In this document: positions 2,486 through 52,253 of the stretch, one piece after another
How the letters are laid out: the number at the start of each line of letters is the position of its first letter
Position numbering within the stretch: position 1 is the first letter of the stretch
The notes under the pieces: model-generated
Told to the model about the DNA's origin: nothing
Database searches by the model: none
Seen by the model: only the letters and a program-made list of their open reading frames with translations
Source of the DNA: Planctomycetota bacterium
Lineage (GTDB): Bacteria; Planctomycetota; UBA11346
Assembly: GCA_038213805.1 (NCBI GenBank)
Contig: JBBQSO010000032.1
Coordinates: 1 to 52,253 of the forward strand
Length of the DNA stretch: 52,253 bases
Direction: 5' to 3'
Position numbers and translations under genes: made by a program

Positions 2486-2689
2486 GTCCGGAAGTCCGGA
2501 AGTCGGAGGTCCGGAAGTCCGGAAGTCGGAGACCACATCCGTGCGGCATGCGGGGCGCTATCACCAACTCGGGTAAGCGCTTTCGGTAGTGACGCTGTTC
2601 GCGCCGTTGCGGGGAGCGACCGCGCGGATCAGGGATTCGTTTCCGGTTCCACGGGACTTCCGGACTTCCGGACTTCCGGACCTCCGGAC
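2486..2689. repeat. Fold-back element, GTCCGGAA octamer family, copy 1
   Basis: Left arm 2486-2531 is [GTCCGGAA GTCCGGAA GTCGGAG]x2. Right arm 2654-2689 is GGAC (TTCCGGAC)3 CTCCGGAC. Unique spacer of about 120 bp. Preceded by (GTGAR)4 at 2463-2482. Confidence 0.95.
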
Positions 2690-3096
2690 AATTTCTCCAG
2701 GCCGCTGCGGATCTCCGGGGGCAGCGGTACGCTCTCGCCCAGGTCGCGGTCGACGCAGGCGTGGACCTGCTTCATCGACGCGGCGAGCACCGTCTGGCCC
2801 TTGCCGGGGATGGCGAGGTCGATGGCGATGGTGTAGCTGCTGCTGCCGATGCGCGCGCAGCGCACGGTGATATGCACGTCCTCGCCGTGGCGCAGGGGGT
2901 GCTTGAAATCAGATTCGCTGTGCACCAGGGGCAGCAGGTGGCCGCGGTCGTTGATCAGCTTGGCCAGACTCAGGCCGGCTTCGGCCAGGGCCAGTTCGTA
3001 GGCCTCGTGGGCGATCGCGACCAGGCGGGCGAAGAACACCACTCCCGCCGCGTCGACGTCGTTGAGCAGGATGCGGCGCGTGCAGGTATAGGGCAT
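2629..3096 (-). CDS. Hotdog-fold acyl-CoA thioesterase (4HBT family; resembles DHNA-CoA hydrolase)
   Basis: DVDAAGVVFFA...HEAYE motif, LPLVHSESDFKHPLRHGE, and SVPLPPE near the C-terminus. Confidence 0.85.
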   Translation of the reverse strand: MPYTCTRRILLNDVDAAGVVFFARLVAIAHEAYELALAEAGLSLAKLINDRGHLLPLVHSESDFKHPLRHGEDVHITVRCARIGSSSYTIAIDLAIPGKGQTVLAASMKQVHACVDRDLGESVPLPPEIRSGLEKLSGGPEVRKSGSPVEPETNP

Positions 3097-3159
3097 GCCT
3101 CAGCCTACCCGGCGGATTACCGGTGGCCAAGGGGCGAGTCGTGCGTGTCATGCGCGGCC

Positions 3160-4383
3160 ATGCCCTTCCTGCGCCGCTTCGCCGCCTTGGTGGCGCTGGC
3201 CATCGCCCTGGCCTTGCCGACCCGCCTCGACGCGCATCCCCTGGTGACCATCCGCATCGACGCGGTCGCCGATGGCGACACCGTCACCATCACCGTCACT
3301 GCCGAGCAGATCGACATCGCCGCGGTCATGGAGCCGCCGTCGACGGTGCTGCGTGACCGCGCGCACCTCGAGGCGCTGATGCCGCGCATCGGCGAATACC
3401 TGCGCACGCGCGTGACCTTCGCAGCGGATGGCAGGCTTCAGCCGGGGACATTCCTCGCCTATGGGCCGGAGCTGCTCCATCCCGGCGCCTGGAAGCCCGG
3501 CGACCCGGTGCCGCGCAGCCTCGAATTCCTGCTGTCATGTCCGCTGCCGGCGGGAACCGCCGACGTCGTCATCACCACCAAGGCCTTCGTCGAGCTGGGC
3601 AGTCCAGTGATCGGCATCGTCACCCTGCACGTCGGCGGCAAAGGTCTGCGCACGACGTTGGGTAGCGATGGTGTGGCTGCATTCCATGTGCCGGGCGCGC
3701 CAGCTGCGGGGTCGGTGGTGCCGCCGCCGCAGGAAGGTGGGAATGACAGGCAGATGGGCGCGTCCACGGCGGCGCCGGTCAAACCTGCCCCCACCAGCGG
3801 AGATGCGGAGGAGATCATCACGACGCCCGCGTCCGCCTTCGGCTTCATCCTGCTCGGCTTCAGGCACATCGTTCCCGAGGGCCTCGACCACATCTGTTTC
3901 GTGCTTGGCCTGTTCCTGCTTTCGCCGCGTCTGCGCCCGCTGCTCATCCAGATCACCGCGTTCACCGTCGCGCACTCGGTCACCTTGGCTCTGGCCATGG
4001 GTGGCGTGGTCACCATGGGCGGACGCATCGTCGAAGCGCTGATCGCGCTGTCGATCGTCGCCGTCGCGGTTGAGAACGTCTGTACGCGCGAGCTCCGGCC
4101 GTGGCGGTGGGTGGTGGTGTTCTGCTTCGGACTGATCCACGGTCTCGGTTTCGCTGGCTCCTTCGCCGGGCTCAAGCTCGCGCCCGGCGACTTCATCCGC
4201 CCGCTGGTGTGCCTCAACATCGGCGTTGAACTCGGGCAGCTGACCGTGGTCGCGACGGCGGCTGCGGTGACGGTGTGGTTCTGGAGGAAGCCGTGGTACC
4301 GCAAGGCCATCACCATCCCGGCGAGCGTGCTGATCGCACTGGTCGGGGTGTATTGGGTGTGCCAGCGGATGTTCGGGGCCTAG
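3160..4383 (+). CDS. HupE/UreJ family membrane protein with N-terminal extracytoplasmic domain
   Basis: Start moved to ATG 3160, giving a signal peptide ending LDA-HP. Motifs GFRHIVPEGLDHICF, ITAFTVAHSVTL, FGLIHGLGFA and NIGVELGQL. Confidence 0.88.
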   Translation: MPFLRRFAALVALAIALALPTRLDAHPLVTIRIDAVADGDTVTITVTAEQIDIAAVMEPPSTVLRDRAHLEALMPRIGEYLRTRVTFAADGRLQPGTFLAYGPELLHPGAWKPGDPVPRSLEFLLSCPLPAGTADVVITTKAFVELGSPVIGIVTLHVGGKGLRTTLGSDGVAAFHVPGAPAAGSVVPPPQEGGNDRQMGASTAAPVKPAPTSGDAEEIITTPASAFGFILLGFRHIVPEGLDHICFVLGLFLLSPRLRPLLIQITAFTVAHSVTLALAMGGVVTMGGRIVEALIALSIVAVAVENVCTRELRPWRWVVVFCFGLIHGLGFAGSFAGLKLAPGDFIRPLVCLNIGVELGQLTVVATAAAVTVWFWRKPWYRKAITIPASVLIALVGVYWVCQRMFGA

Positions 4384-4455
4384 CCGCGGGTCATTGCGGT
4401 CGGTTGATGTGAACGCGGAAAGCAACATATCTTGCCAAGTTTGCGGTAGCGTCCT

Positions 4456-4467
4456 TGTACGTACATT
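4456..4467 (+). promoter_or_regulatory. Palindrome TGTACGTACA overlapping a -10-like TACATT; probable antitoxin operator and leaderless promoter
   Basis: Perfect 10-bp palindrome at 4456-4465. TACATT at 4462-4467 lies 6 nt before the toxin ATG (4474), and there is no SD. Confidence 0.55.
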
Positions 4468-4473
4468 GTAGAT

Positions 4474-4773
4474 ATGTCAGAAGACCGTCTCGCTTTCACG
4501 TGCGACCCTGCCAAGGATGTGGAGAACGAGTGCAAACACGGTGTCCAATTCGCGGAGGCGGTCTCGGTCTTCTCCGTTGATCGCGCGCGTCTCATCGACG
4601 ACCCTGATCATTCGGACCAGGAAGAGCGACTGATCATCATGGGTATTTCCGCACGGCTCCGGATCCTGATGGTTTGTCATTGCCACCGTGAGGATCACCA
4701 CGAGATCCGCATCATATCCGCCAGGAAGGCGACACGGAGCGAAGGTATGCACTACGGCAGGAGAAAGCCATGA
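4474..4773 (+). CDS. brnT: BrnT-family toxin (type II TA)
   Basis: 99 aa with F(T)CDPAK...N..KHGVQF.EA..VF, DPDHSDQEERL..MG and IRIISARKAT..E...Y. Confidence 0.88.
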   Translation: MSEDRLAFTCDPAKDVENECKHGVQFAEAVSVFSVDRARLIDDPDHSDQEERLIIMGISARLRILMVCHCHREDHHEIRIISARKATRSEGMHYGRRKP

Positions 4774-4979
4774 GGCCGGAATATGATTTTACTGACGCGC
4801 GACCCAATCCCTACGCCAAGCGCCTGAAGAAGTCGATCACCATCCGTCTCGATCCGGATGCCCTGGACTACTTCAAGAAGACGGCCGCGCGCATCGGCAT
4901 GCCCTACCAGACGTTGATCAACCTGTACCTCAAGGACTGTGCGCGAAAGCGGCGCAAGCCGGAGCTGTCCTGGTCATAG
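4770..4979 (+). CDS. brnA: BrnA-family / RHH antitoxin
   Basis: MRPEYDF...NPYAKRLKKSITIRLD...LDYFK...GMPYQTLIN.YL. ATGA overlap with the toxin stop. Confidence 0.88.
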   Translation: MRPEYDFTDARPNPYAKRLKKSITIRLDPDALDYFKKTAARIGMPYQTLINLYLKDCARKRRKPELSWS

Positions 4980-5079
4980 GGGAACTCATTAGAGTCGGGA
5001 GCGTCGCTCACCGTGAAGGCGATCGAGGCTCCGCCCACGCGCCCCTTGCGCCGCCCCCGACCCGCCCAACCCTGCCTGC

Positions 5080-7293
5080 GTGACCGAGCCCGCCGCCACT
5101 GCACCCGTTGCCGCGACCCTGGCCCTCGCCGAGGTCGCCCTCGACTGCCCGGGCCGGGAGTCGTACAGCTACCGCGTGCCCGACCATCTGGTCACGGAGC
5201 TCGCGCCCGGCGACTGCGTGACCGTACCGTTCGGCCCGCGTACCCTGCGCGGCTTCGTGTTGACGGTTGGCCAGCGTGAGCCGCCAGCGGGCATCCGCCT
5301 GCGCGACATTGTCGAGCGTCGCGCCGGCGTGCGCGTGCCGGCGCACCTGCTGCGCCTGATCCAGTGGGGCGCGCGCTACTACCGCTGCTCACTTGGCGAG
5401 TTCCTGGCCGGGGCGGTGCCGGCGCCGGTGCGCGAAGGAACCTCGATGGAGCGCCTGCGCTTCGTCGAGAAGGACGCGGCCTTCGCCGGCAAGCTGACCG
5501 CGCGCCAGGCGGCGGTGCTGGCGGCGCTGCCGGCGGAGCCGCTCGCGCTGGCCGAGGCCTGCCGGCTGACGGACACCGACCGCGCGATGTTCGAGCGCCT
5601 CGCCACCGCCGGCGCGGTGCGCCTGCGCGACCAGCACGAGATCCAGGAGATCCGCCTGGAGGTGCGCGCCGAGCGCCACCCCCTGACCGACGAGCAGCAG
5701 GTCGCGGTGGCGGCGGTGGCGGTGGCGCTCGACGCCGGGCGGCACCAGCCTTTCCTGCTCTATGGCGTGACCGGGTCGGGCAAGACCCTGGTCTACCTCG
5801 AGCTGGCCGAGCGCGTCATCGCCGCCGGCAAGCAGGTGCTGCTGCTGCTGCCCGAGATCGCGTTGACCCCGCAGCTGGCGGCGCGCGTGCGCATGCGCTT
5901 CGCGCGCGTCGCGGTGTGGCATTCCGGCTTCACCGACGGCGAGCGCGCCGAGCTGTGGCGTCGCATCCATGCCGGCGAACTCGACTTGGTGGTAGGCACG
6001 CGTTCGGCGCTGTTCGCGCCGCTGCCGGCGCCGGGCCTGATCATCGTCGACGAGGAGCACGAGCAGTCCTACAAGCAGGAGAGCGTGCCGCGCTACCACG
6101 CGCGCGATCTGGCGGTGGTCTACGCCGGACAGCTCGGCATCCCGATCCTGATGGGCTCGGCGACGCCGGCGCTGGAGAGCGTGCACAATGGCCGCTCCGG
6201 CAAATACACCGTGCTGCAGCTGCGCAACCGCCCGCTCGGCGGCAAGCTGCCTGCGCCGCTGCTGATCGACATGCGCGCGGAGTGCCACGCGCAGAAGCGC
6301 GCGGCGACCATCAGTCGAGAACTGATCGAGCGGCTGCGCGCGGTGCGCGAGAAGGGCGAGCAGGCGATCATCCTGCTCAATCGCCGCGGCTGGAGTCCGG
6401 TGGTCAGCTGCCAGGCCTGCGGCAACACGCTGATGTGCCGCAACTGCGATATCAGCATGACCTACCACAAGGGCGCCGGGCAGGTGCGCTGCCATTACTG
6501 CGGCGATCAGGCGCCGCTGCCGAAGCGCTGCCCGGCGTGCAGCCAGGACACCCTGACCACGCAGGGCCTGGGCACCGAGCAGCTCGCTGCGCAGCTGGTG
6601 GTCGAGATCCCGGAACTCAAGCTGCTGCGCGTCGACGCCGACACCGTCAACGAGCGCCAGGGCCACGCCAAACTCTTCCAGGCCTTCGCACGCGGTGAGG
6701 CGGAATGCCTGGTGGGCACCCAGATGGTCGCCAAAGGCCTGGATTTTCCGCGCGTGACCCTGGTCGGGATCATCGCCGCCGACCGCGGTCTGGCGATCCC
6801 GGAATTCCGCGCCGCCGAGCGCACGTTTCAACTGGTCGCGCAGGTCGCCGGCCGTGCCGGCCGCGGTGAGCGCCCCGGCGTGGTGGTGGTGCAGGCTTTC
6901 GATACCGAGGCCCTGCCGCTGCAGTGCGCACTGCACCACCGGCCGAAGACCTTCTTCGATGCGGAGCTGCGCCTGCGCGAGGAGTACGGCTACCCGCCTT
7001 ACGCCGGCCTGGTGCGCGTGCTGTGGAGCGGCGAGTCCGCGGCCGCGGTGCAGCTGCTCGCCACTGCGCATGGCGAACGCCTGCGCGCGGCGTCAGCGGG
7101 GTGCACGATCCTCGGTCCGAATCCGGCCAGCCTCGCCTTCCTCAAGGGGCAGCACCGCTGGCACGCGCTGATCAAGGCGCCGAGCCGCGGGGCGGCGCAG
7201 GGTTTCCTCGATCGGCTGACGGCGGCGGGCGGGTTGGAGAAGAAGAACGGGGTGCACGTGGCGATCGATGTGGATCCGTTCGTGACGTCGTGA
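5080..7293 (+). CDS. priA: Primosomal protein N' (replication restart helicase)
   Basis: GVTGSGKT, LLLPEIALTPQ, DEEH, SATP, LNRRG, four CxxC zinc ligands, GTQMVAKGLDFP, QVAGRAGR, YPPY and IDVDP. Confidence 0.97.
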   Translation: MTEPAATAPVAATLALAEVALDCPGRESYSYRVPDHLVTELAPGDCVTVPFGPRTLRGFVLTVGQREPPAGIRLRDIVERRAGVRVPAHLLRLIQWGARYYRCSLGEFLAGAVPAPVREGTSMERLRFVEKDAAFAGKLTARQAAVLAALPAEPLALAEACRLTDTDRAMFERLATAGAVRLRDQHEIQEIRLEVRAERHPLTDEQQVAVAAVAVALDAGRHQPFLLYGVTGSGKTLVYLELAERVIAAGKQVLLLLPEIALTPQLAARVRMRFARVAVWHSGFTDGERAELWRRIHAGELDLVVGTRSALFAPLPAPGLIIVDEEHEQSYKQESVPRYHARDLAVVYAGQLGIPILMGSATPALESVHNGRSGKYTVLQLRNRPLGGKLPAPLLIDMRAECHAQKRAATISRELIERLRAVREKGEQAIILLNRRGWSPVVSCQACGNTLMCRNCDISMTYHKGAGQVRCHYCGDQAPLPKRCPACSQDTLTTQGLGTEQLAAQLVVEIPELKLLRVDADTVNERQGHAKLFQAFARGEAECLVGTQMVAKGLDFPRVTLVGIIAADRGLAIPEFRAAERTFQLVAQVAGRAGRGERPGVVVVQAFDTEALPLQCALHHRPKTFFDAELRLREEYGYPPYAGLVRVLWSGESAAAVQLLATAHGERLRAASAGCTILGPNPASLAFLKGQHRWHALIKAPSRGAAQGFLDRLTAAGGLEKKNGVHVAIDVDPFVTS

Positions 7294-7355
7294 GGGGGAC
7301 GGTAGACCCGAGACTCTAATCGCGAGACGTGCGACGCGAGATTGCGAGAGCGCGG

Positions 7356-7397
7356 GAGAAAATAGACAGCCTCCGATCCGGGGGATCGGAGGCTGTC
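7356..7397 (-). terminator. Intrinsic terminator (15-bp perfect stem) between convergent priA and the EF-hand gene
   Basis: GACAGCCTCCGATCC-GGG-GGATCGGAGGCTGTC at 7365-7397, followed on the minus strand by TATTTTCTC. Confidence 0.8.
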
Positions 7398-7426
7398 GCG
7401 ATGCTCTCAGCCGTGTGGTTGGCGGT

Positions 7427-12519: not shown

Positions 12520-15500
12520 TCATCCCAACGCGATGCGCTGCCTCAGGCTCGGCCTGACCCGCTCATCCGGCGTCAGAATCCCGCGATAATTCAGCGGATC
12601 GGCCGCCGACACCTCGACCGGCGGCGTGGCCGGCAGGTCGCGTACGCCGCGCAGCTGCTCGTAGGCCTCGGGCAGCGCGAACTGCTCGCCGCTGAAGCCG
12701 GCGACGAAGCGTCCGCCGCGTACCTCGCCGCGCAGTTCGAGGGTGCGCAGCGCGCGCAGCAGGTCGCGCCAGGACAGCGGCTGGCGCTCGCGCAGCGCGG
12801 TCATGCGGAAGACCACGCCGGTGCGGCGCAGCAGGGCGCGCGCCACAAACAGCGCCTGATCCTCGGCGGCGGTGCCGGTCGCGGCGGGGCGCGTGCCGGT
12901 GCGGCGGAACAGGCTCCAGCGCCCGCCCGGCTGCAGCGCGCGGTTGCGGCGCTGCGCGGGCAGCAGCAGCCAGCGCAGCGCGGCCAGCGAGTCGCAGGTG
13001 ATCAGGCCGCACGCGACCAGCTCGGCCTGCGCCATCTCGACGTAGGCGGGCAGCAGGCCTGCGCCGCGCACCAGCTCAGCCTGGAAGAGCGCGCCGCCGC
13101 CTTGCAGGCAGCGTAGCACGGCGCTGGCGTAGCCGCTCAGTCCGGCGTCATCACCGGGCGGGGCGATGGCCAGCCAGGCGGCGAGGTCGGCGCGCGGGAC
13201 CAGGCTGAGCGGCGTGCCGTGCAGCGAGGCGCCGGCACGGCGCGGGCCGCCATCTTCGCGCGCTGGCGGCGCGTTCCACAGCCGGCCCCAGGCGATCTCG
13301 CCGGTCAGCGCGAGGTGGTCGAGCCAATCGTGGCGGTAGCCGGCGACGCGCGCCGGTAGCACGCGCAGCGACCACGCCGGTGCCGGGACCTCGCAGCCGG
13401 CGAGCTGGGCGATGGACGCGGCGACGCCGAGCGGCCCCTCGCGCCGGCAGCCGGGATCGGCGCCCTGCCAACAGCCCAAAAAGCGCAGGAACTGCAGCGC
13501 GCTGGCCGGCTCGACGCTGCGCCGCCGCGCCTCGCGCGCATGGTGGTGGAGGCGCGCGAGCAGGCGGCGGTCGCACCACACCTCGCGCCCGTCGAGGCGC
13601 GTGCGCAGCGCGAGGCCCTGTTGCTCGAGGTGCAGCAGCGCGGGATCGTCGCTGGCCACCGGGCCGAGCGCCTCGAGGCGGCCGCGCCACTGCGCCACCG
13701 GGTCGCGATCGGCCTCGACCGCGTACCAACGCGCGTCCTGGTGCAGCACCCGCTGACCGGCCTGCAGCGCGACCAGCCAGGGCAGCCATGGCGCCGCCTC
13801 GTCGTCGCGCACGTGGCCCATCCACAGCAGCGCCTCGTGCAGCTCCTCGGCGTCGCGGGGGTCGGGCCAGGCCGCGGCGCGGATCTCGGCGACGCTCACG
13901 GGATCGAGCTCGGTGACCGCCTCGCGGCCGTCGGCGGAGGGCGGGCCGACCGCGCGTACGCGGCGCTCCTCGAGCGGTGTGTCGTCGAGGAAGGCGTAGG
14001 GCTTGGCGGCGAGGATGCCGCGCGCGAACGGGCTGGGCTCCGGGGTCTCGACCGCGCGCGTGGCGATGGCGCCGGAGCGGATGCCGGACAGCACCTCGAT
14101 GAGGCCGTCGACGTCGAGCAGCTCGGTCAGGCAGTCGGCGATGGTCTGATCGACCAGCGGATGCCCCTCGGGCAGGCGGATGGGACCGCTGGGCAGGGTC
14201 TCGGGACAGGCGAGCACGCCGGGGAAGGCGGCGGCGAGTGCGTCGTTGGCGCGCAGGCGCGTCAGGTAGGGCGGCACCTTGCGCCCGCCGGCGAAGCGCT
14301 CGACGACCAGCGCGCGCGACGCGTTCCAGCGCCAACGCGTCTCGAACTGCCCGCCGGTGATGCAGGCCTGGATGAGCAGGTCGCGCACCGACGCGGGCGA
14401 CAGGAAGGTGAAGACCTCGTCGAGCGGGAAGCTGGTCGCGGGCGCCAGCGAGATGAGGATGGCGTCCTCGTCCGCCGCCGCCTCGAGTTCGAAGCCGAAG
14501 CCGCCGCAGATGCGCTTGCGCAGGGCCAGGCCCCAGGCGCGGTTGATGCGCGCGCCGAAGGGCGCGTGGATGACCAGCTGCATGCCGCCGCTGTCGTCGA
14601 AGAAGCGTTCGGCGATGATCAGGGTGCGGCTCGGTACCGCGCCCAGCGCACGCCGCCCGGCGGCGAGGTGGTCCCACAGTTGGCCGGCCGCCGCGGGGCC
14701 GAGCACGCATTCCTCGACCAGCCACGCGGGGTCGGTGCTGTCGGTGCGCACGTCGCCGACCGCCTCGCTCAGCTCGCGGCTGCGCGCCGGCGCCTCGCCC
14801 AGCCAAAAGGGGATGGTGGGTGGGGCGCCGTGCGCGTCGGCGACGTGCATCACCCCGCCGCGCGAGTCGACGCGCAGGATGCGCCACGAGGTGTTGCCGA
14901 GCTGGAAGATGTCGCCGGGATTCGACTCGAGCGAGAAGTCCTCGTCGAGGGTGCCGACCACCGCGCCCGAGGGTTCCTCGCGCACCGTGAAGTTGGCGAC
15001 GTCGGGGATCGCCCCGCCCGAGGTCATCGCTATCAGACGCGCGCGCCGTGTGCCGCGCAGGCGGCGGTTGACCGCGTCGCGGTGCACCAGGCCGCGCCGG
15101 CCGTCGCCGTGCAGGGCGACGCAGCGGTCGAAGGTGGTGCGGCTCAGGTCGCGGTATGGCCAGGCGCGCGTCAGGCACGCGAACAGCTCGTCCTCGCCCC
15201 AGGGTTCCGCCGCCACGCAGGCGACGATGTGTTGGGCAAGCAAGTCGAGCGGCCCTGCCGGCATCGGGATGCGGTCGAGTTCACCGGCGCGTACCGCGCG
15301 CAGCAGCGCCGCGGCCTCGCCAAGCTCTTCGATGGTGAGCGGAAAGAGCCGCCCCTTGGGCGTGCGCGCGACGCCGTGGCCGGCGCGGCCGACGCGCTGC
15401 AGAAAGGTGGCGATGGTGCGTGGGCTGGAGATCTGCACCACCAGGTCGATGTCGCCGATGTCGATGCCGAGTTCGAGCGAGGCGGTCGCGACCAGCGCTG

Positions 15501-16440
15501 CGAGCTTGCCGTCCTTGAGGCGCTGCTCAGCGTCCAGGCGGCGCTCCTTGGACAGGCTGCCGTGGTGGCAGGCGACGCGCTCCGCGCCCAGGCGCTCGCC
15601 CAGGCGCAGCGATACGCGCTCGGCGAGTTTGCGCGTGTTGACGAAGATCAACGTGGTGCGGTGCGCCTCGACCAGGGCGGCGACGCGCTCGTAGATCTCG
15701 TCCCAGACCTCGCCGGCGCACACCGATTCGAGCGGCGACGACGGCACCTCCACCGCCAGGTCGAGGTCGCGCAGGTGGCCGGTGTCGACCACCACGCACG
15801 CGCGGCCCACGCCCGTCAGGAAGCGCGCGATGCCATCGAGCGGCTTCTGCGTCGCCGACAGGCCGATGCGCTGGAGCGGCCCGGCGAGGTGTTCAAGGCG
15901 CTCGAGCGACAACGCCAGGTGCGCGCCGCGCTTGTTGCCGGCCAGGGCGTGGATCTCGTCGACGATCACGGTGCGCACCGAGGCGAGCATCTTCCTTCCG
16001 CCGACGCTGGTCAGCAGGATGGCGAGCGATTCCGGGGTGGTGACCAGGATGTGCGGCGGCTGGCGCAGCATCTTCGCGCGCTCGGCCGCGGTGGTGTCGC
16101 CGCTGCGCACCAGCACGCGGATGTCGGGCACGAAGCAGTCCTGCTCGCGGATGCCGGCGAGCGGCACCTGCAGGTTCTTCTGGATGTCGTTGCCCAGCGC
16201 CTTCAAAGGCGAGACGTAGAGGACCTGGCAGCCGTCGCCCAGGTACGGGCCCTGCTGCACCAGGGAGTCGAGCGCGGTCAGGAAGGCGGCAAGAGTCTTG
16301 CCGGTGCCGGTCGGCGCGGCGATCAGCACGCTGCGCCCCGCGCGGATCTCCGGCCAGCCGCGGGCCTGCGGCGCGGTCGGGGTGCCGACGCGGGTCTTGA
16401 ACCAGGCCTGGACGGCGGGGTGGAAGGCGGACAGCGGCAT
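12520..16440 (-). CDS. lhr: Lhr-type SF2 DEAH-box helicase with C-terminal extension
   Basis: FHPAVQAWF, APTGTGKT, YVSPLKALGNDI, TTPESL, DEIH, GLSAT, SLELGIDIG, QRVGRAGH, and C-terminal RGGRFVAGFSGEQFALPEA. Confidence 0.93.
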   Translation of the reverse strand: MPLSAFHPAVQAWFKTRVGTPTAPQARGWPEIRAGRSVLIAAPTGTGKTLAAFLTALDSLVQQGPYLGDGCQVLYVSPLKALGNDIQKNLQVPLAGIREQDCFVPDIRVLVRSGDTTAAERAKMLRQPPHILVTTPESLAILLTSVGGRKMLASVRTVIVDEIHALAGNKRGAHLALSLERLEHLAGPLQRIGLSATQKPLDGIARFLTGVGRACVVVDTGHLRDLDLAVEVPSSPLESVCAGEVWDEIYERVAALVEAHRTTLIFVNTRKLAERVSLRLGERLGAERVACHHGSLSKERRLDAEQRLKDGKLAALVATASLELGIDIGDIDLVVQISSPRTIATFLQRVGRAGHGVARTPKGRLFPLTIEELGEAAALLRAVRAGELDRIPMPAGPLDLLAQHIVACVAAEPWGEDELFACLTRAWPYRDLSRTTFDRCVALHGDGRRGLVHRDAVNRRLRGTRRARLIAMTSGGAIPDVANFTVREEPSGAVVGTLDEDFSLESNPGDIFQLGNTSWRILRVDSRGGVMHVADAHGAPPTIPFWLGEAPARSRELSEAVGDVRTDSTDPAWLVEECVLGPAAAGQLWDHLAAGRRALGAVPSRTLIIAERFFDDSGGMQLVIHAPFGARINRAWGLALRKRICGGFGFELEAAADEDAILISLAPATSFPLDEVFTFLSPASVRDLLIQACITGGQFETRWRWNASRALVVERFAGGRKVPPYLTRLRANDALAAAFPGVLACPETLPSGPIRLPEGHPLVDQTIADCLTELLDVDGLIEVLSGIRSGAIATRAVETPEPSPFARGILAAKPYAFLDDTPLEERRVRAVGPPSADGREAVTELDPVSVAEIRAAAWPDPRDAEELHEALLWMGHVRDDEAAPWLPWLVALQAGQRVLHQDARWYAVEADRDPVAQWRGRLEALGPVASDDPALLHLEQQGLALRTRLDGREVWCDRRLLARLHHHAREARRRSVEPASALQFLRFLGCWQGADPGCRREGPLGVAASIAQLAGCEVPAPAWSLRVLPARVAGYRHDWLDHLALTGEIAWGRLWNAPPAREDGGPRRAGASLHGTPLSLVPRADLAAWLAIAPPGDDAGLSGYASAVLRCLQGGGALFQAELVRGAGLLPAYVEMAQAELVACGLITCDSLAALRWLLLPAQRRNRALQPGGRWSLFRRTGTRPAATGTAAEDQALFVARALLRRTGVVFRMTALRERQPLSWRDLLRALRTLELRGEVRGGRFVAGFSGEQFALPEAYEQLRGVRDLPATPPVEVSAADPLNYRGILTPDERVRPSLRQRIALG

Positions 16441-16591
16441 GGGGTCCGTTATGACCGGTGGCGACGAAAGGCCACCACCGAACGCAGCTGCCATGGGCAA
16501 CCCAGCTGCCGGCGGGCTGGCGTGCGGACGCATGCGGAAAAAGGGGTTGGCGAGGCGGCAGGGAGCCGCTCAATGCCGCCGCACCGAGGTG

Positions 16592-26686: not shown

Positions 26687-26870
26687 GTCCGGAAGTCCGG
26701 AGGTCCGGAAGTCCGGAAGTCGGTGAGGGACTGCGAGAAGCGAGGGAACGCCGGTAGCCTGCCCTGTCCATCCTCAAATGAAACAGGCCCGATGACATGG
26801 TCATCGGGCCTGATCCCTGGCAGCGCTTGGCTGTCCGACTTCCGGACTTCCGGACCCCGGACCTCCGGAC
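26687..26870. repeat. Fold-back element, GTCCGGAA family, copy 2
   Basis: Left arm 26687-26723 (4 octamers plus GTCGG). Right arm 26835-26870 (CCGAC TTCCGGAC TTCCGGAC CCCGGAC CTCCGGAC). Spacer of 111 bp. Confidence 0.95.
26776..26812 (-). terminator. Intrinsic terminator of tig
   Basis: CAGGCCCGATGAC-ATG-GTCATCGGGCCTG at 26784-26812 forms a 13-bp stem, followed by TTTCATTT on the minus strand. Confidence 0.8.
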
Positions 26871-26877
26871 CTTCCGT

Positions 26878-28293: not shown

Positions 28294-28430
28294 GTCCGGA
28301 AGTCCGGGGTCCGCAAGTCCGGAAGTCACCCCTGCTCGGGATCCCTGCCACGTTCAGATCACGTCATTGATCATGTGAATCCGCTCACAACAGCGTCTCA
28401 ACGAGACTTCCGGACTTCCGGACCCCGGCC
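28294..28430. repeat. Fold-back element, GTCCGGAA family, copy 3
   Basis: Left arm 28294-28327, right arm 28405-28430, spacer of 77 bp. Confidence 0.92.
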
Positions 28431-29687: not shown

Positions 29688-30458
29688 ATGAACCAGCCCC
29701 TGCTCTCCCCCGACAATCCCCTGGTCAAGCGCTGGCGCAGCCTGCACGACACGCGGGGCCGCCGCGAGGCGGGTGCCTTCCTGGTCGAGGGCCGGCGCGC
29801 CATCGACGGCTTCCTGGCGGCCGGCTGGCGTCCCGAAGTCATCCTGGTGCGCCTCGGCGAGGAACTGCCCGGCACGTGGCCCGAGGACGCCGCCCAACCG
29901 GTCAGCGCACGGGTCGCAGAACGCCTGTCGCAGGCCAGCACCGCCTCTGGCTACCTCGGGGTCTTCCCTATCCCGGTCCCGCCGCCGCTTGACCTGCAGG
30001 CCGGCGGGCTGGTGCTCGCCGAGGTGGGCGATCCGGGGAATGCCGGCACCCTGCTGCGCAGCGCCGCAGCCTTCGGCGTTCGCCAGGTGGTACTGCTCGG
30101 CGGGGTGGAGCCATGGGGCGCCAAGACCGTACAGGCCTCGGCGGGCGCGCTCGCCCTGCTCCATGTGCATCAGCTGGCGGATACCTTCGGCCTCGCACCA
30201 CTGGCGGGCGGCGCGCCCTGCTGCGCCCTGGTGGTCAGCGGCGGCAGTGCACCGGCCGCGCTGTGCGCCGGCCCGCGTTGGCTGGTGGTCGGCAGCGAGG
30301 CGCATGGCCTGCGCCCGGAGTGGCTCGTCGCCTGCAGCGAGCGCCTGACGCTGCCCATGCCCGGTCCGGTCGAGAGCCTGAACGCCGCGGTCGCCGGTTC
30401 GCTGGCGTGCTATCTGCTGGCGATGCGGGGGACGGAGCAAGGTCCGGTAGTGCGGTAA
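29688..30458 (+). CDS. TrmH/SpoU-family RNA methyltransferase
   Basis: SPDNP.VK, FLVEG, DPGNAGTLLRSAAAFG, VGSEAHG, LPMPG.VESLNAAVA. Start ATG 29688. Confidence 0.92.
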   Translation: MNQPLLSPDNPLVKRWRSLHDTRGRREAGAFLVEGRRAIDGFLAAGWRPEVILVRLGEELPGTWPEDAAQPVSARVAERLSQASTASGYLGVFPIPVPPPLDLQAGGLVLAEVGDPGNAGTLLRSAAAFGVRQVVLLGGVEPWGAKTVQASAGALALLHVHQLADTFGLAPLAGGAPCCALVVSGGSAPAALCAGPRWLVVGSEAHGLRPEWLVACSERLTLPMPGPVESLNAAVAGSLACYLLAMRGTEQGPVVR

Positions 30459-30593
30459 TGCGGAAGTCTGGAAGTCCGGACGTCCGGAAGTCTTGTGGTC
30501 CGGGATCCTGAGACGAGTCCATGCGCACTGAAACAATCGCAGGCAAGGCCGGAAGGGTTTGGGTACCGGGACTTCCGGACTTCCCGACTTCCC
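30442..30593. repeat. Fold-back element, GTCCGGAA family, copy 4 (degenerate)
   Basis: Eight phased octamers at 30442-30505. Right arm CCGGGACTTCCGGACTTCCCGACTTCCC at 30566-30593. Confidence 0.88.
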
Positions 30594-35734: not shown

Positions 35735-35972
35735 TGATGGCTGATGGCTGATGGCTGATGGCTGATGGCTGATGAATCTTTTGCCCGGATGCCCAGGTGA
35801 GGCTCACGGATTTCAGATGATGCGTTGGCGCTCGCGATCCCATTCCTTGGTTTCGTGCGGCGTGCGGACGGGAAACCGATCACGCGGAACTGGGCGACCC
35901 CATGGTCTTCTGAAATGCCGAAGCCGGCGCACCACGCCGGCTTCGCCATCAGCCATCAGCCATCAGCCATCA
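35735..35972. repeat. Fold-back element, TGATGGC/GCCATCA heptamer family, copy 1
   Basis: (TGATGGC)5 TGATGA at 35735-35775 and (GCCATCA)4 at 35945-35972, with a spacer of about 170 bp. Confidence 0.95.
35919..35945 (-). terminator. Hairpin just downstream of E2, possible terminator
   Basis: CGAAGCCGGCG-CACCA-CGCCGGCTTCG forms an 11-bp stem. The U-tract is weak. Confidence 0.45.
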
Positions 35973-40260: not shown

Positions 40261-40410
40261 GTCCGGCAGTCCCGGGGTCCGGAAGTCCGGAAGTCGATAA
40301 CAAATGCCGGAAGTCCAGGCATCGCCCCGAGTTCCCGCTGCCGTCGGAGAGCCGCACCGGACCCGGTCACACGAGACTTCCGGACCCCGGACTTCCGGAC
40401 TTCCGGACCC
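40261..40410. repeat. Fold-back element, GTCCGGAA family, copy 5
   Basis: Left arm 40261-40296, right arm 40375-40410, spacer of 78 bp. Lies between divergent genes. Confidence 0.93.
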
Positions 40411-41355: not shown

Positions 41356-41426
41356 GTGCGGAGTGCGGAGTGCGGGATCCGCACCGCGCACCGCGCACCG
41401 CGCACCGCGCACTCCGCACTCCGCAC
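41356..41426. repeat. Spacer-less fold-back element, GTGCGGA/TCCGCAC heptamer
   Basis: GTGCGGA GTGCGGA GTGCGGG A TCCGCAC (CGCGCAC)4 (TCCGCAC)2. Confidence 0.92.
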
Positions 41427-41494
41427 CATGCCTCCCGTATCCCAGTCTTGCAACCCCGGCCTGCGACCAACACTACGCGGCCCGGAGAAGCCCC

Positions 41495-42985
<1,491 letters not shown>

Positions 42986-43012: not shown

Positions 43013-43206
43013 GATCGAACAGGAGCCGCGGAGACGCGGAGAACGGAGGAGGACGTCAGGTGGCTGATGGCCGGGGTCCCCCGCTCGGCCGCTCCCATGA
43101 CGTCGCACCACGCGGAATGAGGGCTGCGAAACCGCAATCGTGCTGTGACCGGGTGCGACCGGAGCTGGCCTCCAGCTCGTCTGGTCTCAGCGTCTGCTGT
43201 CCGATC
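43013..43206. repeat. MITE-like element with imperfect 23-bp terminal inverted repeats
   Basis: GATCGAACAGGAGCCGCGGAGAC (43013-43035) versus the reverse complement of 43184-43206, GATCGGACAGCAGACGCTGAGAC (19/23). Internal (CGCGGAGA)2. Confidence 0.65.
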
Positions 43207-44218: not shown

Positions 44219-44327
44219 TTAACGCAGAGGGCGCAGTGGCGATGGAGGCAGGAGGGGGTTCCAGTGCTGCTCTCACGGTGCGGGCTCTCACGCAGGTCCG
44301 GCTCGTTCAGGTTGTCCTCTGCGTTAA
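44219..44327. repeat. Small element with perfect 12-bp inverted ends TTAACGCAGAGG
   Basis: TTAACGCAGAGG at 44219-44230 and CCTCTGCGTTAA at 44316-44327. Confidence 0.75.
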
Positions 44328-45534: not shown

Positions 45535-45779
45535 GGCGCGCGAGCGTTGCGACGCCCGGCCGTACCGCAAGGTCGAGGTTGGCGGAGCGCAGTCCAGCTG
45601 CTCCGCCATTCAGGGGATTTTTACCGCCACGCCGCCCAGACGCGACGCGGACACCGGGTGGGCTGGAGCGGTCGCACTCCGCAACTCGCGCGCTCATCCT
45701 GGGGCGGACTGCGAATGGCTGGCGGACGTTGGTGTCTTGGCGGCTTGGCGCTAAAATCCCGGTAATCCCGGGCCGATCC

Positions 45780-47693: not shown

Positions 47694-47865
47694 GGACCCG
47701 AGACTCTAGACCTTGGACCCTAGACCCTAGACCCTAGACCCCAGACCCTAGACCGGTTCCGACGTTAGGCTGCGTGATCGCAGACCCTGTCATTCCAACA
47801 TCCCACGAATTCCGGGTTCCACCCCATCAGCAAGCCTAGGGTCTAGGGTCTCGGGTCTAGGGTCT
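47694..47865. repeat. Fold-back element, AGACCCT/AGGGTCT heptamer family
   Basis: About 9 phased units at 47694-47754 and 4 inverted units at 47838-47865, with a spacer of about 80 bp. Confidence 0.93.
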
Positions 47866-47943
47866 CCAACACGAAGTGTGCACTTTCTCCACGCCAACCG
47901 CCCAGGTCCTCCCTTGGAACGGGCAGAAACCGCCGCTTGGCGA

Positions 47944-47960
47944 TTGGAACACCGCGTGCG
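47944..47960 (+). promoter_or_regulatory. Putative sigma54 (-24/-12) promoter of the flgB operon
   Basis: TTGGAACACCGCGTGC with GG (47946-47947)-N10-GC (47958-47959), 30 nt before the flgB ATG. SD GGAGG. Confidence 0.55.
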
Positions 47961-47989
47961 TTCGCTCTGTCAGAAGGTGGGAGGTGGCC

Positions 47990-48355: not shown

Positions 48356-48357
48356 TC

Positions 48358-48780: not shown

Positions 48781-48817
48781 TCGTCACATCCGCTTCCACC
48801 GCGCGCGCTGACCAGCC

Positions 48818-49150
48818 ATGAGCAACCCCCTCGATCCCATGCGCGGCCTCTACGGCCAGGCCATCTGCCCGCCGGTCTCCCCGGCGACGGTGAACCAGCC
48901 GGGCGAGGCGGCGCCACGCACGGAGGAGGGCAAGACCTTCAACGACGTGCTCAAGGATTTCGTCAACCAGGTCGACCAGACCCAGCAGAAGTACGACGAC
49001 GCCATCGGCGCCGTCGAGCGCGGCGAGAGCGACAACCTGCACCGCGTCATGCTCGCGCAGGGCCAAGCCCAGCTGTCGTTGAAACTGGCGGTCGAGGTGC
49101 GGAACAAGCTGGTGGACGCGTACAAGGAAGTGATGCGGACGCAGTTCTGA
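48818..49150 (+). CDS. fliE: Flagellar hook-basal body protein FliE
   Basis: F.DVL...V.QV...Q, G...LH.VMLA...A.LSL.L.VEVRNKLVDAYKEVMR.Q. Confidence 0.95.
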   Translation: MSNPLDPMRGLYGQAICPPVSPATVNQPGEAAPRTEEGKTFNDVLKDFVNQVDQTQQKYDDAIGAVERGESDNLHRVMLAQGQAQLSLKLAVEVRNKLVDAYKEVMRTQF

Positions 49151-49173
49151 TTGGTGGGATGGGGTGCTCGTGT

Positions 49174-49374
49174 TGATGGCTGATGGCTGATGGCTGATAG
49201 CTGATAGCGATTTGCTATCGGCTATCTGCCGTTTTTCTCCGTGGGCCATATCCTATCTGTTGCTGTTGCTGTTGCCGTCAGCCGTTAGCCGTTAGCCGTT
49301 AGCCGTTAGCCGTTAGCCGTTAGCCGTCAGCCATCAGCCATCAGCCATCAGCCATCAGCCATCAGCCATCAGCC
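49174..49374. repeat. Fold-back element, TGATGGC/GCCATCA family, copy 2 (compound)
   Basis: (TGATGGC)3(TGATAGC)2 at 49174-49208, (CTGTTG)3 at 49257-49274, and GCCGTCA(GCCGTTA)6GCCGTCA(GCCATCA)6 at 49274-49371. Confidence 0.97.
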
Positions 49375-49422
49375 TTCTCCATATGGTACACCTTGCGCTT
49401 TGCAGTCCCAGGCGAGGCATCC

Positions 49423-51081
49423 ATGTCCAAAATCTGGCAACAACTGGCGACCATCTGGGGACGGCTCGAGATCCCGCAGCGCGCGACCATCGTCCTGGTC
49501 GGCCTCGCCTTCCTGGGCGCGGTGGTGGCGCTGTGGTACGGGGCGACGCGTCCCGACTACCGCATGCTCGCGCAGGGGCTGGACAAGGCGCACATCGCCG
49601 AGATCGCCGCCTACCTGGACTCCACCCATATCTCGTACCAGGTCGCGGACCGCGAGACCACCATCCTGGTGCCGAGCAAGGAGCTCTACCGCCTGCGTAA
49701 CGAGCTCGCCGAGCGCGACATGCTCGGCGACGGCTCCAAGGGCTTCGAACTGCTCGCCAAGAGCAACATGTGGGACACCACCTTCACCGAGCACAAGAAC
49801 TACGATCGGGCGGTCGCTGGCGAACTCGAGCGCAGCTTCCGCGAGCTGCCGGGCGTGCGTTCGGCCCGTGTACTGATCGACCGTCCCCAGCCCAGCCCGT
49901 TCATCGACGCCGACGAAGGCAAGCCGAAGGCCTCGATCAAGCTCGACATGAAGCCGGGCACCCGGCTGTCCGACCGCCAAGTCGCCGGCATCCTGCACCT
50001 GACCGCCGGTGCGATCGCGGGGCTCGGCCCTGAGCGCGTCGAGATCATGGACAACGGCGGCCTGCTCACCCCGGCGGCGGCGAACAGCGGTGCGCAGCTC
50101 GCGCAGACCACCCTTGAGGCGGAGGCAGCGCGCGAGACCTACCTCACGCGCAAGGCCCAGGACCTGCTCGACGCGACCCTTGGACCGGGCCGCAGCTCGG
50201 TCAAGGTCAGCGTCAAGCTCGACTTCACCAAGCGCAGCAGCACCACCACCGATCCGACCACCAAGGTGCTGACGCGCGAGAACACCCGCACCAGCGACGA
50301 GAAGACCCCGGCCGGCGGCAACGGCGGCGTCGCCGGCACCGCGCCCAACGTCGAAGGCGAATCGCGCCCCGCGGGCGCCGTCGCTCAGCTCGCCACCAAG
50401 ACCTCGGAAGAGACGCGCAACGAGTACACCGTCGGCAGCAGCCATACCGTCCAGGAGGACGAGGTCGGCAAGGTGCGCGGCATGACCGTCAGCATCCTGC
50501 TCGACCAGAAGATCACCAAGGGCCCCAAGCTGGACGACAAGGGCCAACCGACCAAGGACGTGGTCGAGAAGCATGAGGACTACAGCGAGGTCGAGAAGAA
50601 GCGCTTCCAGGACCTGGTGCTCGGTGCGATCGGCTTCAACGCCGCCAAGGGCAGCCAGGGCGCGGGCGAGACCCCCGCCATGATTGAGAGCCGCTTCAGC
50701 GTCGCGGTGCAGAGCATGGCGATGTGGCACGAGCCGGTCGAGATGGTCGCGGCCAGCGCCATCCCGCTCGGCCTGGGCGGGAGCATGCTCGACTATATCG
50801 GCTACGGGTTGGTCGGTGTGGTCGCCCTGGGCATGATGTTCATCGCGCGCGGCCAGCTCAAGCGCAGCCACGTGGCCTGGACCCAGGCCGAGGAACGCGG
50901 CCGCCGCGAGGCCGAGGAGGCCGAGAAGCGCCGCCAGGTCGACTCCAAGAAGGAGACGCCCGACACCGCCGCCGACCTTGAGCGCCACCGCCGCACCCTG
51001 CTGCGCGACCAGATCAAGAAGATGGTCAGCGAAGACCCGACCTCTGCTGCGCAGATCATGCGCAAGTGGCTGTACGAGTAG
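49423..51081 (+). CDS. fliF: Flagellar M-ring protein FliF
   Basis: Two TM segments, GFELL, Y.RA..GELER, ARV.I..P..SPF, PKAS, GG..GT..N, and C-terminal P..AA.I.R.WL. Confidence 0.95.
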   Translation: MSKIWQQLATIWGRLEIPQRATIVLVGLAFLGAVVALWYGATRPDYRMLAQGLDKAHIAEIAAYLDSTHISYQVADRETTILVPSKELYRLRNELAERDMLGDGSKGFELLAKSNMWDTTFTEHKNYDRAVAGELERSFRELPGVRSARVLIDRPQPSPFIDADEGKPKASIKLDMKPGTRLSDRQVAGILHLTAGAIAGLGPERVEIMDNGGLLTPAAANSGAQLAQTTLEAEAARETYLTRKAQDLLDATLGPGRSSVKVSVKLDFTKRSSTTTDPTTKVLTRENTRTSDEKTPAGGNGGVAGTAPNVEGESRPAGAVAQLATKTSEETRNEYTVGSSHTVQEDEVGKVRGMTVSILLDQKITKGPKLDDKGQPTKDVVEKHEDYSEVEKKRFQDLVLGAIGFNAAKGSQGAGETPAMIESRFSVAVQSMAMWHEPVEMVAASAIPLGLGGSMLDYIGYGLVGVVALGMMFIARGQLKRSHVAWTQAEERGRREAEEAEKRRQVDSKKETPDTAADLERHRRTLLRDQIKKMVSEDPTSAAQIMRKWLYE

Positions 51082-51111
51082 ACCCACAGAACCCGCGCGA
51101 AGGATCAGCAC

Positions 51112-52143
51112 GTGGCCAAAGCCAAGGACAAGGACAAGGATGCGCCCAAGCCGCCCGGCGGCCGGCGCAAGGCTGCGGCCTTCCTGCTGTCGATCGACAG
51201 CGAGCTGGCGAGCAAGGTCATGCAGCGCATGAGCGAGCGCGACGTCGCGCTGATCTCGGACGAGATGACGCGCATCACCGACATCACCGGCAAGGAGGTC
51301 GAGGACACCCTTACCGAGTACAGCGTCACCGTCGGCGGCGATCGCATCGCGGTCGCGCCGATGGTGCAGGCCATCCTCGAGCGCGCGCTGGGCCGCGAGC
51401 GCGCCAAGGAGATGCTCGAGAAGATCCGCAAGCAGACCCGCGACGCGGAGCCGTTCCGCTCTCTTCAGAGCCTGGACGCGCGCCAGATTTCCTCGCTGTT
51501 GCGCGGCGAGCACCCGCAGGTGCTGGCCATCGTCATCAGCTACCTGCAGCCGGCCATCGCCTCGGAGCTGCTCAAGGGCCTGAGCGACGAGGTGCGCTTC
51601 GACGTGGTCAAGCGCGTCGCCGCCACCGAGGAGATGCCCGCCGAGCTGGTCAGCCAGGTCGACGAGATGCTCGAGGTGCGCGCCTACGCGCTCGGCGACC
51701 AGCAGACCGAATCGGCCGGCCAGGCGCGCTTCAAGACCGTGGCGCAGATGCTCAACATCAGCGAGCCGGGCGTGACCAAGGCGATCATCGACCGCCTCAA
51801 CCGCGAGAGCCCGGCCATCGCCAACGAGATCCAGGCGCTGATGTTCGTCTTCGACGACCTCGCCAAGATCAGCGACAAGGACATGCAGAAGGTCCTCGCC
51901 GAGGTCGACAAGGCCGACCTTGCGCTGGCGCTCAAGGCCGCCGCCCCGGAGCTCGCCGAGAAGCTGCTCAAGAACCTCTCGGCGCGCGCCCGCGACAACA
52001 TCAAGGATGAGATCGACATGCTCGGCCCGAAGCCGCTCAGCGAGGTCGAGGAGGCGCAGAAGCGCATCCTCCAGCAGGTGCGCGCCATGGAGGAGCGCGG
52101 CGACGTGACCATCAACCGCGGTGGCGGCGAGGTGATGGTATGA
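51112..52143 (+). CDS. fliG: Flagellar motor switch protein FliG
   Basis: RKAA.FLLS, EHPQ..A, MFVFDDL, LALALK, N.S.RA, GP..LSEVEEAQ..I...R. Confidence 0.96.
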   Translation: MAKAKDKDKDAPKPPGGRRKAAAFLLSIDSELASKVMQRMSERDVALISDEMTRITDITGKEVEDTLTEYSVTVGGDRIAVAPMVQAILERALGRERAKEMLEKIRKQTRDAEPFRSLQSLDARQISSLLRGEHPQVLAIVISYLQPAIASELLKGLSDEVRFDVVKRVAATEEMPAELVSQVDEMLEVRAYALGDQQTESAGQARFKTVAQMLNISEPGVTKAIIDRLNRESPAIANEIQALMFVFDDLAKISDKDMQKVLAEVDKADLALALKAAAPELAEKLLKNLSARARDNIKDEIDMLGPKPLSEVEEAQKRILQQVRAMEERGDVTINRGGGEVMV

Positions 52144-52151
52144 GCGGGAAG

Positions 52152-52253
52152 GTCCGGGAGTCCGGAAGTCCGGGGGTGCGGTAGTCGACGGCCCCCGCGC
52201 ATCCTGCCGCCACGTCGCGGCACGGGGCTGGCGGGCTTACGGTCTTCCGGACG
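52152..52253. repeat. Fold-back element, GTCCGGAA family, copy 6 (truncated by window end)
   Basis: GTCCGGGA GTCCGGAA GTCCGGGG GTGCGGTA GTCG at 52152-52187. First unit of the right arm, CTTCCGGAC, at 52244-52252. Confidence 0.8.

Follow-up and report, generated by a model that had tools for sequence, protein, structure and literature searches.

Paired inverted arrays of short words in a planctomycete genome: a multi-family population of probable gene-less IVS-type fold-back elements

What are the paired, inverted runs of short tandem repeats that recur between the genes of contig JBBQSO010000032.1 of a Planctomycetota bacterium (assembly GCA_038213805.1)? The window analyzed here is the whole of this contig, 52,253 nt in length (C32 of the draft genome G000, which comprises 5.5 Mb in 180 contigs with 69% G+C, is 90% complete and contains the planctomycete-typical genes PSCyt1/2, PSD1 and DUF1501). 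It holds 13 elements of a common plan: a run of a 7-8-nt word, a unique middle and a run of the reverse-complement word. We found that these are part of a genome-wide population with a fixed arm order and many coexisting words, and that arms of the same words, order and length enclose small PF05635 (four-helix-bundle) or GxxExxY genes elsewhere in the genome. We propose that this multi-family population without open reading frames (ORFs) is the gene-less counterpart of intervening-sequence (IVS)-type cassettes, in which a PF05635 or GxxExxY gene lies in a hairpin. On balance we consider it probable that the elements are non-autonomous IVS-type fold-back elements recognized by their word, probably by the cargo proteins.

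With Tandem Repeats Finder and direct reading of the window, we found paired inverted arrays at all 12 loci listed in the original prediction, which had claimed at least 12, and a thirteenth element absent from that list (45613-45760, of the CGCCAAGA type). By chance a two-unit GTCCGGAA pattern should occur 0.03 times in the window; it occurs 21 times, a number reached in none of 100 shuffles. All of the elements are intergenic and flanked by protein genes, and in our own gene calls a stop codon lies within 35 nt of an edge in 11 of the 13, much as had been claimed. Because the interiors are 3-170 nt in length and non-coding in composition, the window elements represent the ORF-less form. No Rfam family is found at gathering scores in the window and, as predicted, no cognate enzyme is encoded there. 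The predicted stems fold with z scores of -3.1 to -5.3. The elements are given below in forward-strand coordinates, together with the state of the orthologous sites in the two closest relatives, G010 (flanks 90-98% identical) and G003 (~82-96%).

2486-2689: GTCCGGAA-family element with a duplicated left arm, an interior of ~126 nt and convergent genes either side; orthologous copy in G010 (interior 77% identical), other families at the G003 site.
7300-7398: not a complete element; one-sided degenerate AGACCCT-like and CGCGAGA-like units, then an unrelated 15-nt perfect hairpin. Of the AGACCCT remnant suggested at 7304, the degenerate one-sided array stands and a complete element does not.
26687-26872: GTCCGGAA-family element with the start of rpiB on one side, the trigger-factor stop on the other and a terminator-like hairpin in the interior; orthologous copy in G010 (interior 87% identical), other words at the site in more distant congeners.
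28294-28423: GTCCGGAA-family element bounded by the start of the trigger-factor gene and the stop of a phosphotransferase system (PTS) EIIA gene; RNA stem predicted on both strands (z -4.5 and -4.8); CGCCAAGA-family element at the G003 site.
30442-30593: GTCCGGAA-family element whose left arm is entered by the frame of a SpoU-type methylase, with the stop at 30456-30458; fold z -3.1; arms and interior both absent in G003.
35735-35972: GATGGCT-family element with an interior of 170 nt; other families in G010 and G003.
40261-40410: GTCCGGAA-family element between divergent genes; fold z -5.3; orthologous copy in G010.
41356-41427: GTGCGGA-family near-palindrome with 3-10 nt between the arms, starting 1 nt past a stop codon; CGCGGAG-type element at the G003 site.
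43013-43206: decayed CGCGGAG-family element between convergent genes (the gltX stop and the stop of a minus-strand gene); G010 orthologue with a better right arm and an interior deletion, another family in G003.
44219-44327: CGCAGAG-type element with perfect inverted ends of 12 nt and 85 nt between them.
45613-45760: CGCCAAGA-type element between a stop codon and the start of an MltA-like gene; interior 84% identical to that of the orthologous G010 element.
47695-47865: GACCCTA-family element flanked by divergent genes; at the G010 site a GTCCGGAA element whose interior is unrelated.
49174-49374: GATGGCT/GACGGCT-family element between fliE and fliF, with the right arm grown to ~14 units; GTCCGGAA element at the site in G010, GGCTGAC-like one in G003.
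52152-52253: GTCCGGAA-family element 8 nt past the fliG stop, cut by the contig end.

The elements alter the ends of coding frames, as in the stop codon that lies within the arm at 30456-30458. Separately, the C-terminus of the SpoU-type methylase differs in G003, where that element is absent. The PriA and Lhr-type helicase genes of the window (5080-7293 and 12520-16533) are ordinary genes, and nothing visible ties them to the elements.

The arrays are not an assembly artefact, since independent contigs cross elements and relatives carry orthologous copies, which disposes of a reservation attached to the original prediction. Contigs of two independent runs span 30442-30593, 43013-43206 and 44219-44327, and among the matches listed there is no joint, gain or loss at these three elements and a single base change on one covering contig. 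Short-read assemblies evidently break at the arrays: for five words, 56 arrays are found no more than 300 bp from a contig end (examples being C1:1-29, C17:1 and the window's own 52152-52253), and some element copies are probably missing from the draft.

Genome-wide, we detected ~270 elements in G000 (271 placed), or roughly one per 20 kb. Arrays with at least three copies have mostly 7-nt (n = 639) or 8-nt (n = 355) periods, with 105 of period 5, 50 of period 10 and 36 of period 11. The genome has 36 unit classes, the main words being GTCCGGAA, GATGGCT, GTGCGGA, GACCCTA and CGCGGAG-like ones. Pairs within 500 bp occur in the correct order 80, 54, 17 and 17 times in four families, and never in reverse. 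In a more sensitive partner search with five words, 403 of the 562 arrays away from contig ends (the 56 near ends being counted apart) are correctly paired, 159 are solo and none is paired in the wrong polarity only. The arm order is therefore fixed, as the window had led the original prediction to claim, and the genome-wide count that it called for shows arrays that are neither mostly unpaired nor randomly oriented. Gaps of 60-100 bp separate the arms in 158 of 338 inverted pairs within 1500 bp, a peak that the 82 direct pairs do not have, and the typical interior is ~80 bp.

Placement relative to genes is equally regular. The median distance of an edge is 9 bp to a stop codon and 69 bp to a start codon, which extends the stop-codon placement seen in the window to the whole genome. 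Among the 271 elements, 139 lie between co-directional genes, 76 between convergent and 34 between divergent genes, with 12 inside called genes and 10 at contig edges; 76 of 615 convergent regions are occupied, versus 139 of 2629 tandem and 34 of 628 divergent ones. At C16:5102-5400 two CGCGGAG-type copies stand in tandem and have interiors that are 97% identical, and C31:15992-16353, judged from repeated reading frames only, looks like a similar pair. Both suggest local duplication through the arms.

This is one dispersed system with a fixed arm order, and it is not the product of independent slippage. That local microsatellite slippage with template switching made the arrays, with no dedicated system, is a notion to which we give very little weight, even if unit numbers do differ between orthologous copies and some arms have grown to 10-14 units. 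The same few words recur at loci that number dozens to hundreds, arms have a fixed modal length and a repeat phase fixed at both ends, inner motifs are family-specific, the same arms surround cargo genes, and arms and interior are jointly absent at empty sites, none of which slippage would give. It survives only as a secondary process that alters unit number.

The modal arm consists of four units plus the first 3 nt of a fifth, with the phase fixed at both ends. In the GTCCGGAA family, 83 of 178 arms have 4.4-4.5 units (four units and GTC, 35 nt), the inner junction is GTC in 82-93% of arms, and short family-specific inner motifs often follow (GTCTCGTG 25 times and GTCGGACA 11 times among 197 junctions). 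The inner ends of GTCCGGAA elements come in a T type and a G type; mixed pairs make up 26 of 69 versus ~19 expected, a weak trend, and the types have no clear orientation relative to genes (8 vs 5). The arms are inverted and can form a long stem according to the predicted folds. The original prediction had proposed that shape rather than sequence is conserved, a view that fails within families, where every letter of the word is retained, across genera too. Moreover, complementarity is no higher between cognate arms than between arms of different copies (0.941 vs 0.936, p = 0.10), G-U-compatible mismatches across 139 elements number 77 on the sense and 77 on the antisense strand, with no bias to the transcribed strand, and no compensatory or wobble signature is found in the arms of these elements. 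Because GTCCGGAA is retained across genera and no pairing signature accompanies it, the sequence comparisons indicate conservation of the word within a family and not merely of the shape; conservation of shape rather than sequence holds just between families.

The genome also contains arms of this kind with a gene between them. G000 has five PF05635 matches and one GxxExxY match (TIGR04256, equivalent to PDDEXK_3), as follows.

Contig C19: (TGATGGC)6, PF05635 gene, (GCCATCA)4, between oppC and oppD.
Contig C29: (GTCCGGAA)4, PF05635 gene, inverted arm, between guaB and guaA.
Contig C28: GxxExxY/PDDEXK_3 gene within CGCGGAG-type arms.
Contig C115: PF05635 gene flanked by other heptamers.
Contig C9: PF05635 gene with heptamer arrays on one side only.
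Contig C6: PF05635 gene with no evident arms.

The arms on C19 and C29 are perfect pairs of the two commonest words and have the same order as those of gene-less elements, and the window arms match gene-bearing copies in word, order and length: GTCCGGAA arms match C29, TGATGGC arms C19 and CGCGGAG-type arms C28. The small cargo gene is absent from all 13 window elements. A link of such arrays to four-helix-bundle and GxxExxY genes, which the original prediction had put forward, is thus borne out in G000, where the larger, ORF-carrying copies that it foresaw exist on C19, C29 and C28. Because the same words in the same polarity enclose these genes, "empty derivatives" is a fair description of the window elements as far as anatomy goes. 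The cargo proteins are the only proteins physically tied to the arms, and the GxxExxY protein belongs to a nuclease-fold family.

Two side observations concern cargo. An GTCCGGAA-armed element at C13:41962-42593 has an interior of 562 bp with an open frame of up to 173 aa and no Pfam match, and this may be a third kind of cargo. The PF05635 paralogues on C6, C9 and C115 share a conserved GC-rich upstream leader of ~120 nt (C6:60600-60760, C9:21250-21400, C115:11640-11800) that holds an inverted TCAAGGA...TCCTTGA pair; two of the three genes are without the usual paired tandem-word arms, and the leader could be a separate cis element of that subgroup.

Orthologous cassettes lie between guaB and guaA in G000, in G010 (protein 90% identical) and in G045, a member of another genus (53%). 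All three copies have GTCCGGAA arms, with diverged leaders between arm and gene, and the arm of the G010 cassette again comprises four units and GTC in 35 nt. G045 has GTCCGGAA arrays on at least six other contigs. Homologues at 38-47% identity are accompanied by related words, namely GTCCGGG in G007 and G045, GTCCGAT in G009 and GGGGTCGC in G018, and the layout of four units and GTC recurs in three of these four (G007, G045 and G009). The words differ again in relatives of the C19 protein at 43-45% identity, and across many phyla inverted arms are found at 50 of 80 loci of C19-protein relatives, 31 of these with clear 7-8-nt periodicity.

In contrast to the arms, which are kept within a family, the interiors have little in common. 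Only 30 of 264 have any other match in G000, and the matches listed are other repeat arrays. When 206 interiors were compared after trimming 12 nt at each end, the mean pair score was 7.86 within families and 7.84 between them (p = 0.69), in agreement with the original remark that the spacers lack mutual similarity. No 6- or 7-mer is enriched more than 3.8-fold in the interiors, with low counts. The interior of 47695-47865 has no match in 47 other genomes of the family, and pieces of it 52 nt and 24 nt in length have 0 exact matches each in a metagenome collection. Interiors have 65% G+C versus 67% for host intergenic DNA, a period-3 signal of 0.175 versus 0.156 for intergenic and 0.423 for coding DNA, and predicted structure no stronger than that of control intergenic sequence (z -0.63 vs -0.47, p = 0.34); some contain terminator-like hairpins. 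They look like neutral non-coding DNA. The uniqueness of the interiors is what a capture system would produce if it stored foreign DNA in them as a one-spacer memory akin to CRISPR. Their host-like G+C, the lack of a coding period-3 signal, the broad range of their lengths and the dispersal of single elements behind housekeeping genes make this the least credible of the explanations that we weighed.

Comparison of relatives reveals how the elements turn over. Six window elements (those at 2486, 26687, 28294, 40261, 43013 and 45613) are common to G010, with interiors 77-87% identical, while at 35735, 47695 and 49174 G010 has a different family with an unrelated interior. Against G003, 17 comparable sites were obtained from 288 elements tried. 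At two the element is the same and the interiors are homologous (scores 22 and 39), one site is empty, and the other 14 score 6-11 and have no interior homology (95th percentile of the control, 12); interiors are homologous only at sites of the same family. The filled and empty orthologous sites that the original prediction had proposed to look for thus exist: the 30442 element is absent in G003, and families differ at other sites. In these alignments arms and interior are gained, lost and replaced as one unit.

The site itself outlasts its occupant. An inverted repeat of at least 18 nt is present in G003 at 10 of 17 sites occupied in G000 and at 9 of 59 sites empty in G000 (odds ratio 7.9, p = 0.0007), and a stricter tandem-arm criterion gives 6 of 17 versus 5 of 59 (p = 0.013); we give both criteria, and automated detection missed cases visible by eye (period-10 words, composite arms). 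Remains of an older family are nested around a newer one, for example at the G003 site orthologous to 35735. Site occupancy is conserved more than the occupant, which needs an explanation of its own.

One interior has shifted position. In 35735-35972, 108 nt match contig C6 of G003 at 74% identity, at a non-orthologous site by another gene, where a GCCATCA arm adjoins the match; in G000 the orthologous site (C8:75069-75258) is occupied by GATGGCT arms and a different interior. The case fits whole-element movement or interior exchange through shared arms. As a separate observation, a perfect 19-nt inverted repeat of the CCCAGGGCAACGCCCTGGG type, with 37 nt between its arms, replaces the left half of a GATGGCT element on contig C6 of G003; such a hairpin is of another kind, with no tandem words. 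The five interiors that were tested in relatives yielded one clear relocation, one weak 37-nt match, two orthologous matches and two with none. A blastn comparison of 27 element interiors of G003 and G010 with G000 gave two matches, both orthologous, and is not used against relocation because it is too insensitive for 75% identity.

Interior exchange between sites with the same arms would also fit arm-mediated recombination, and with it a quite different role for the arrays, as DNA binding sites for a word-specific protein in regulation or chromosome organization, spread by recombination, with the four-helix-bundle protein as the DNA-binding factor. Word-level conservation with no pairing signature, the fixed number of units per arm and the abundance of solo arrays (159 of 562) would all suit such sites. 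We nevertheless think this improbable, as it leaves unexplained the strict inverted order with no pair in the wrong polarity, the gap of ~80 bp, the presence of the factor's gene within such a pair and, in what is presented of the Coxiella case (PMC4990558), the same design inside 23S rRNA genes.

The placement of the elements also invites an explanation at the level of RNA, in which the host selects hairpins as 3'-end protectors, terminator helpers or RNase III cut sites and any word serves. The tight placement after stop codons, the enrichment in convergent regions, the re-use of sites by different families in relatives, the strong predicted stems and the terminator-like hairpins of some interiors are all in line with it, and in the published excerpts on Xanthomonas (PMC4692102) transcripts start or stop at arrays above control repeats. 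The arms, however, exhibit neither a G-U excess on the transcribed strand (77 vs 77) nor compensatory change between cognate arms; the word is kept across genera, which pure structure does not need; 34 elements have divergent genes on either side and so serve no 3' end; and the interiors are no more structured than control sequence. We therefore regard host-selected hairpins as unlikely, if the strongest of the alternatives.

A third candidate agent is a Y1 transposase. The elements would then resemble repetitive extragenic palindromes (REPs) and bacterial interspersed mosaic elements (BIMEs), moved by a REP-associated tyrosine transposase (RAYT). G000 contains five PF01797 (Y1-transposase-like) matches, four above the family cut-off, and REP pairs are likewise intergenic and inverted. 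No arrays flank any of these five genes within 300 bp, the arms consist of tandem words and not of single imperfect palindromes, and 36 unit classes face few Y1 genes; movement by a RAYT is accordingly very improbable.

We return to the elements as non-autonomous IVS-type fold-back elements, the interpretation that we favor. The word would be a recognition sequence read by a trans-acting protein, the likeliest reader being the cargo protein of a gene-bearing copy with the same word. ORF-less copies would rely on that protein in the way that non-autonomous elements rely on an autonomous partner. Relocation would be mostly conservative, by moving or exchanging rather than copying; if so, interiors would be single-copy and would drift like neutral DNA, and any older kinship among them would have been erased, because neutral sites of G000 and G003 are already ~25% diverged. 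In transcripts, pairing of the arms could form a stem of 25-35 bp, a possible substrate for RNase III as in the IVS of 23S rRNA.

Several observations weigh against this interpretation. The interiors are as dissimilar within families as between them, which copy-and-paste MITEs (miniature transposable elements with inverted repeats) would not give, and relocation rests on the one case among five interiors. No target-site duplication or clean footprint is found in the filled/empty comparisons, none of which has clean borders. Solo arrays are frequent. The link between protein and word could be plain co-inheritance of the cassette. An GTCCGGAA-armed gene was not found in G005, G007 or G006 despite arrays there, nor a C19-type gene in G010 or G003 despite GATGGCT arrays, in assemblies that are 62-90% complete, and in G000 the GACCCTA and GTGCGGA families have no gene-bearing copy. 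To our knowledge no catalytic activity has been described for PF05635 proteins. A search of G000 (90% complete) found no RVT_1 reverse transcriptase, and the Y1-like genes, as noted, have no arrays near them.

A bolder extension, possible but doubtful in our judgment, is that PF05635 and GxxExxY proteins are word-specific nucleic-acid-binding factors that maintain and move fold-back elements of an undescribed class. Each protein subfamily would read its own 7-8-nt word, presented as four-and-a-bit tandem copies per arm; the hundreds of ORF-less copies per genome would be non-autonomous dependants; and conservative relocation or interior swapping would be directed into a limited set of sites behind stop codons. 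If the arms are indeed read by cargo proteins, the unexplained excess of heptamers in bacterial genomes, the origin of rRNA IVSs and the function of PF05635 would become one testable system. The matter is of some breadth, as the design recurs in many phyla and ~270 elements lie directly behind housekeeping genes in G000 alone.

How do these elements compare with known systems? The original statement that they are neither CRISPR nor REP/BIME holds: unlike CRISPR they have inverted arms and one interior per element (no search aimed at cas genes was made), and unlike REP/BIME their arms are tandem words ~80 nt apart and not a single imperfect palindrome of 20-40 nt with a tetranucleotide head, with no Y1 gene by the arrays. 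MITEs and the Foldback transposons of eukaryotes have terminal inverted repeats, and their non-autonomous copies far outnumber gene-bearing ones; Foldback arms consist of short tandem repeats around variable middles. The elements here likewise have terminal inverted repeats. They differ from MITEs in that no target-site duplication is seen (no borders being clean), no transposase is found and interiors are unrelated within a family. Integron attC sites have imperfect inverted ends and a variable center of tens of bases and lie right after a stop codon. They conserve structure and stand in cassette arrays next to an integrase, whereas the elements described here conserve the word and are dispersed behind housekeeping genes.

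A close anatomical relative of the gene-bearing copies is the IVS of 23S rRNA. Such sequences are excised by RNase III, differ between species at the same site, and are also known with an ORF from Leptospira. The Coxiella burnetii 23S rRNA IVS carries an S23p ORF (PMC4990558). A hairpin of inverted ends, PF05635 cargo (here in the cassettes) and a sporadic distribution are features in common. The window elements differ from IVSs in being gene-less and in lying behind protein-coding genes and not in rRNA helix 25 or 45; the G000 assembly itself contains no large-subunit (LSU, 23S) rRNA gene.

Among heptamer arrays, the short tandemly repeated repetitive (STRR) sequences of cyanobacteria had been named as the nearest analogue. 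These and the TAACTGA repeats of Beggiatoaceae are similarly abundant intergenic tandem heptamers, although mainly in direct or solo arrays; the portion of the Beggiatoaceae account used here gives 169 direct sets and one indirect set (PMC4679880). The paired GGGAATC arrays of Xanthomonas are closer and displace STRR sequences as the nearest analogue. In the excerpted account of Rehm et al. 2015 (PMC4692102), X. campestris and X. axonopodis each have ~185 GGGAATC arrays and 70-75 convergent array pairs per genome, with one array per strand. The arrays are intergenic, prefer four units, lie near or overlap the stop codon of the upstream gene and occur in conserved gene neighborhoods, with 83% of positions common to both species. 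Transcripts start or stop at them more often than at control repeats, and the word is read by the authors as a quadruplex former (PMC4692102).

The GGGAATC word extends well beyond Xanthomonas. Of 80 GGGAATC loci across many phyla, 22 are paired in one order (the gap being 23-118 nt in 18 cases) and one is reversed at 522 nt; tblastn with 14 queries found no four-helix-bundle gene at these 80 loci. As a side observation, (GGGAATC)4 is present in records under the labels Xanthomonadales, Gemmatimonadaceae, several cyanobacterial genera, Acidobacteriota, Pirellulales, Elusimicrobia, a Vibrio and one archaeal metagenome-assembled genome, that is, as one word family across phyla. In titles and the openings of abstracts no published link of heptamer arrays to PF05635 genes turned up, which is no proof of absence.

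Judged by the excerpts of the Xanthomonas account (PMC4692102), paired heptamer arrays as such were already known, and the planctomycete elements resemble them in having about four tandem units (here of 7 or 8 nt), paired on opposite strands and next to a stop codon. Those excerpts contain no link to cargo genes and nothing on interiors or on word replacement. Where Xanthomonas has a single G-rich word, several unrelated words are used here, of which GTCCGGAA, GATGGCT, GTGCGGA and GACCCTA have no GGG tract; and where positions are mostly shared between the Xanthomonas species, occupants here change between close relatives. The system is real, dense and only partly described. What it adds to those already known is the coexistence of many words in one genome, an arm length common to empty and gene-bearing copies, retention of the word across genera at an orthologous cassette, arms devoid of a pairing signature, and replacement of the occupant at conserved sites.

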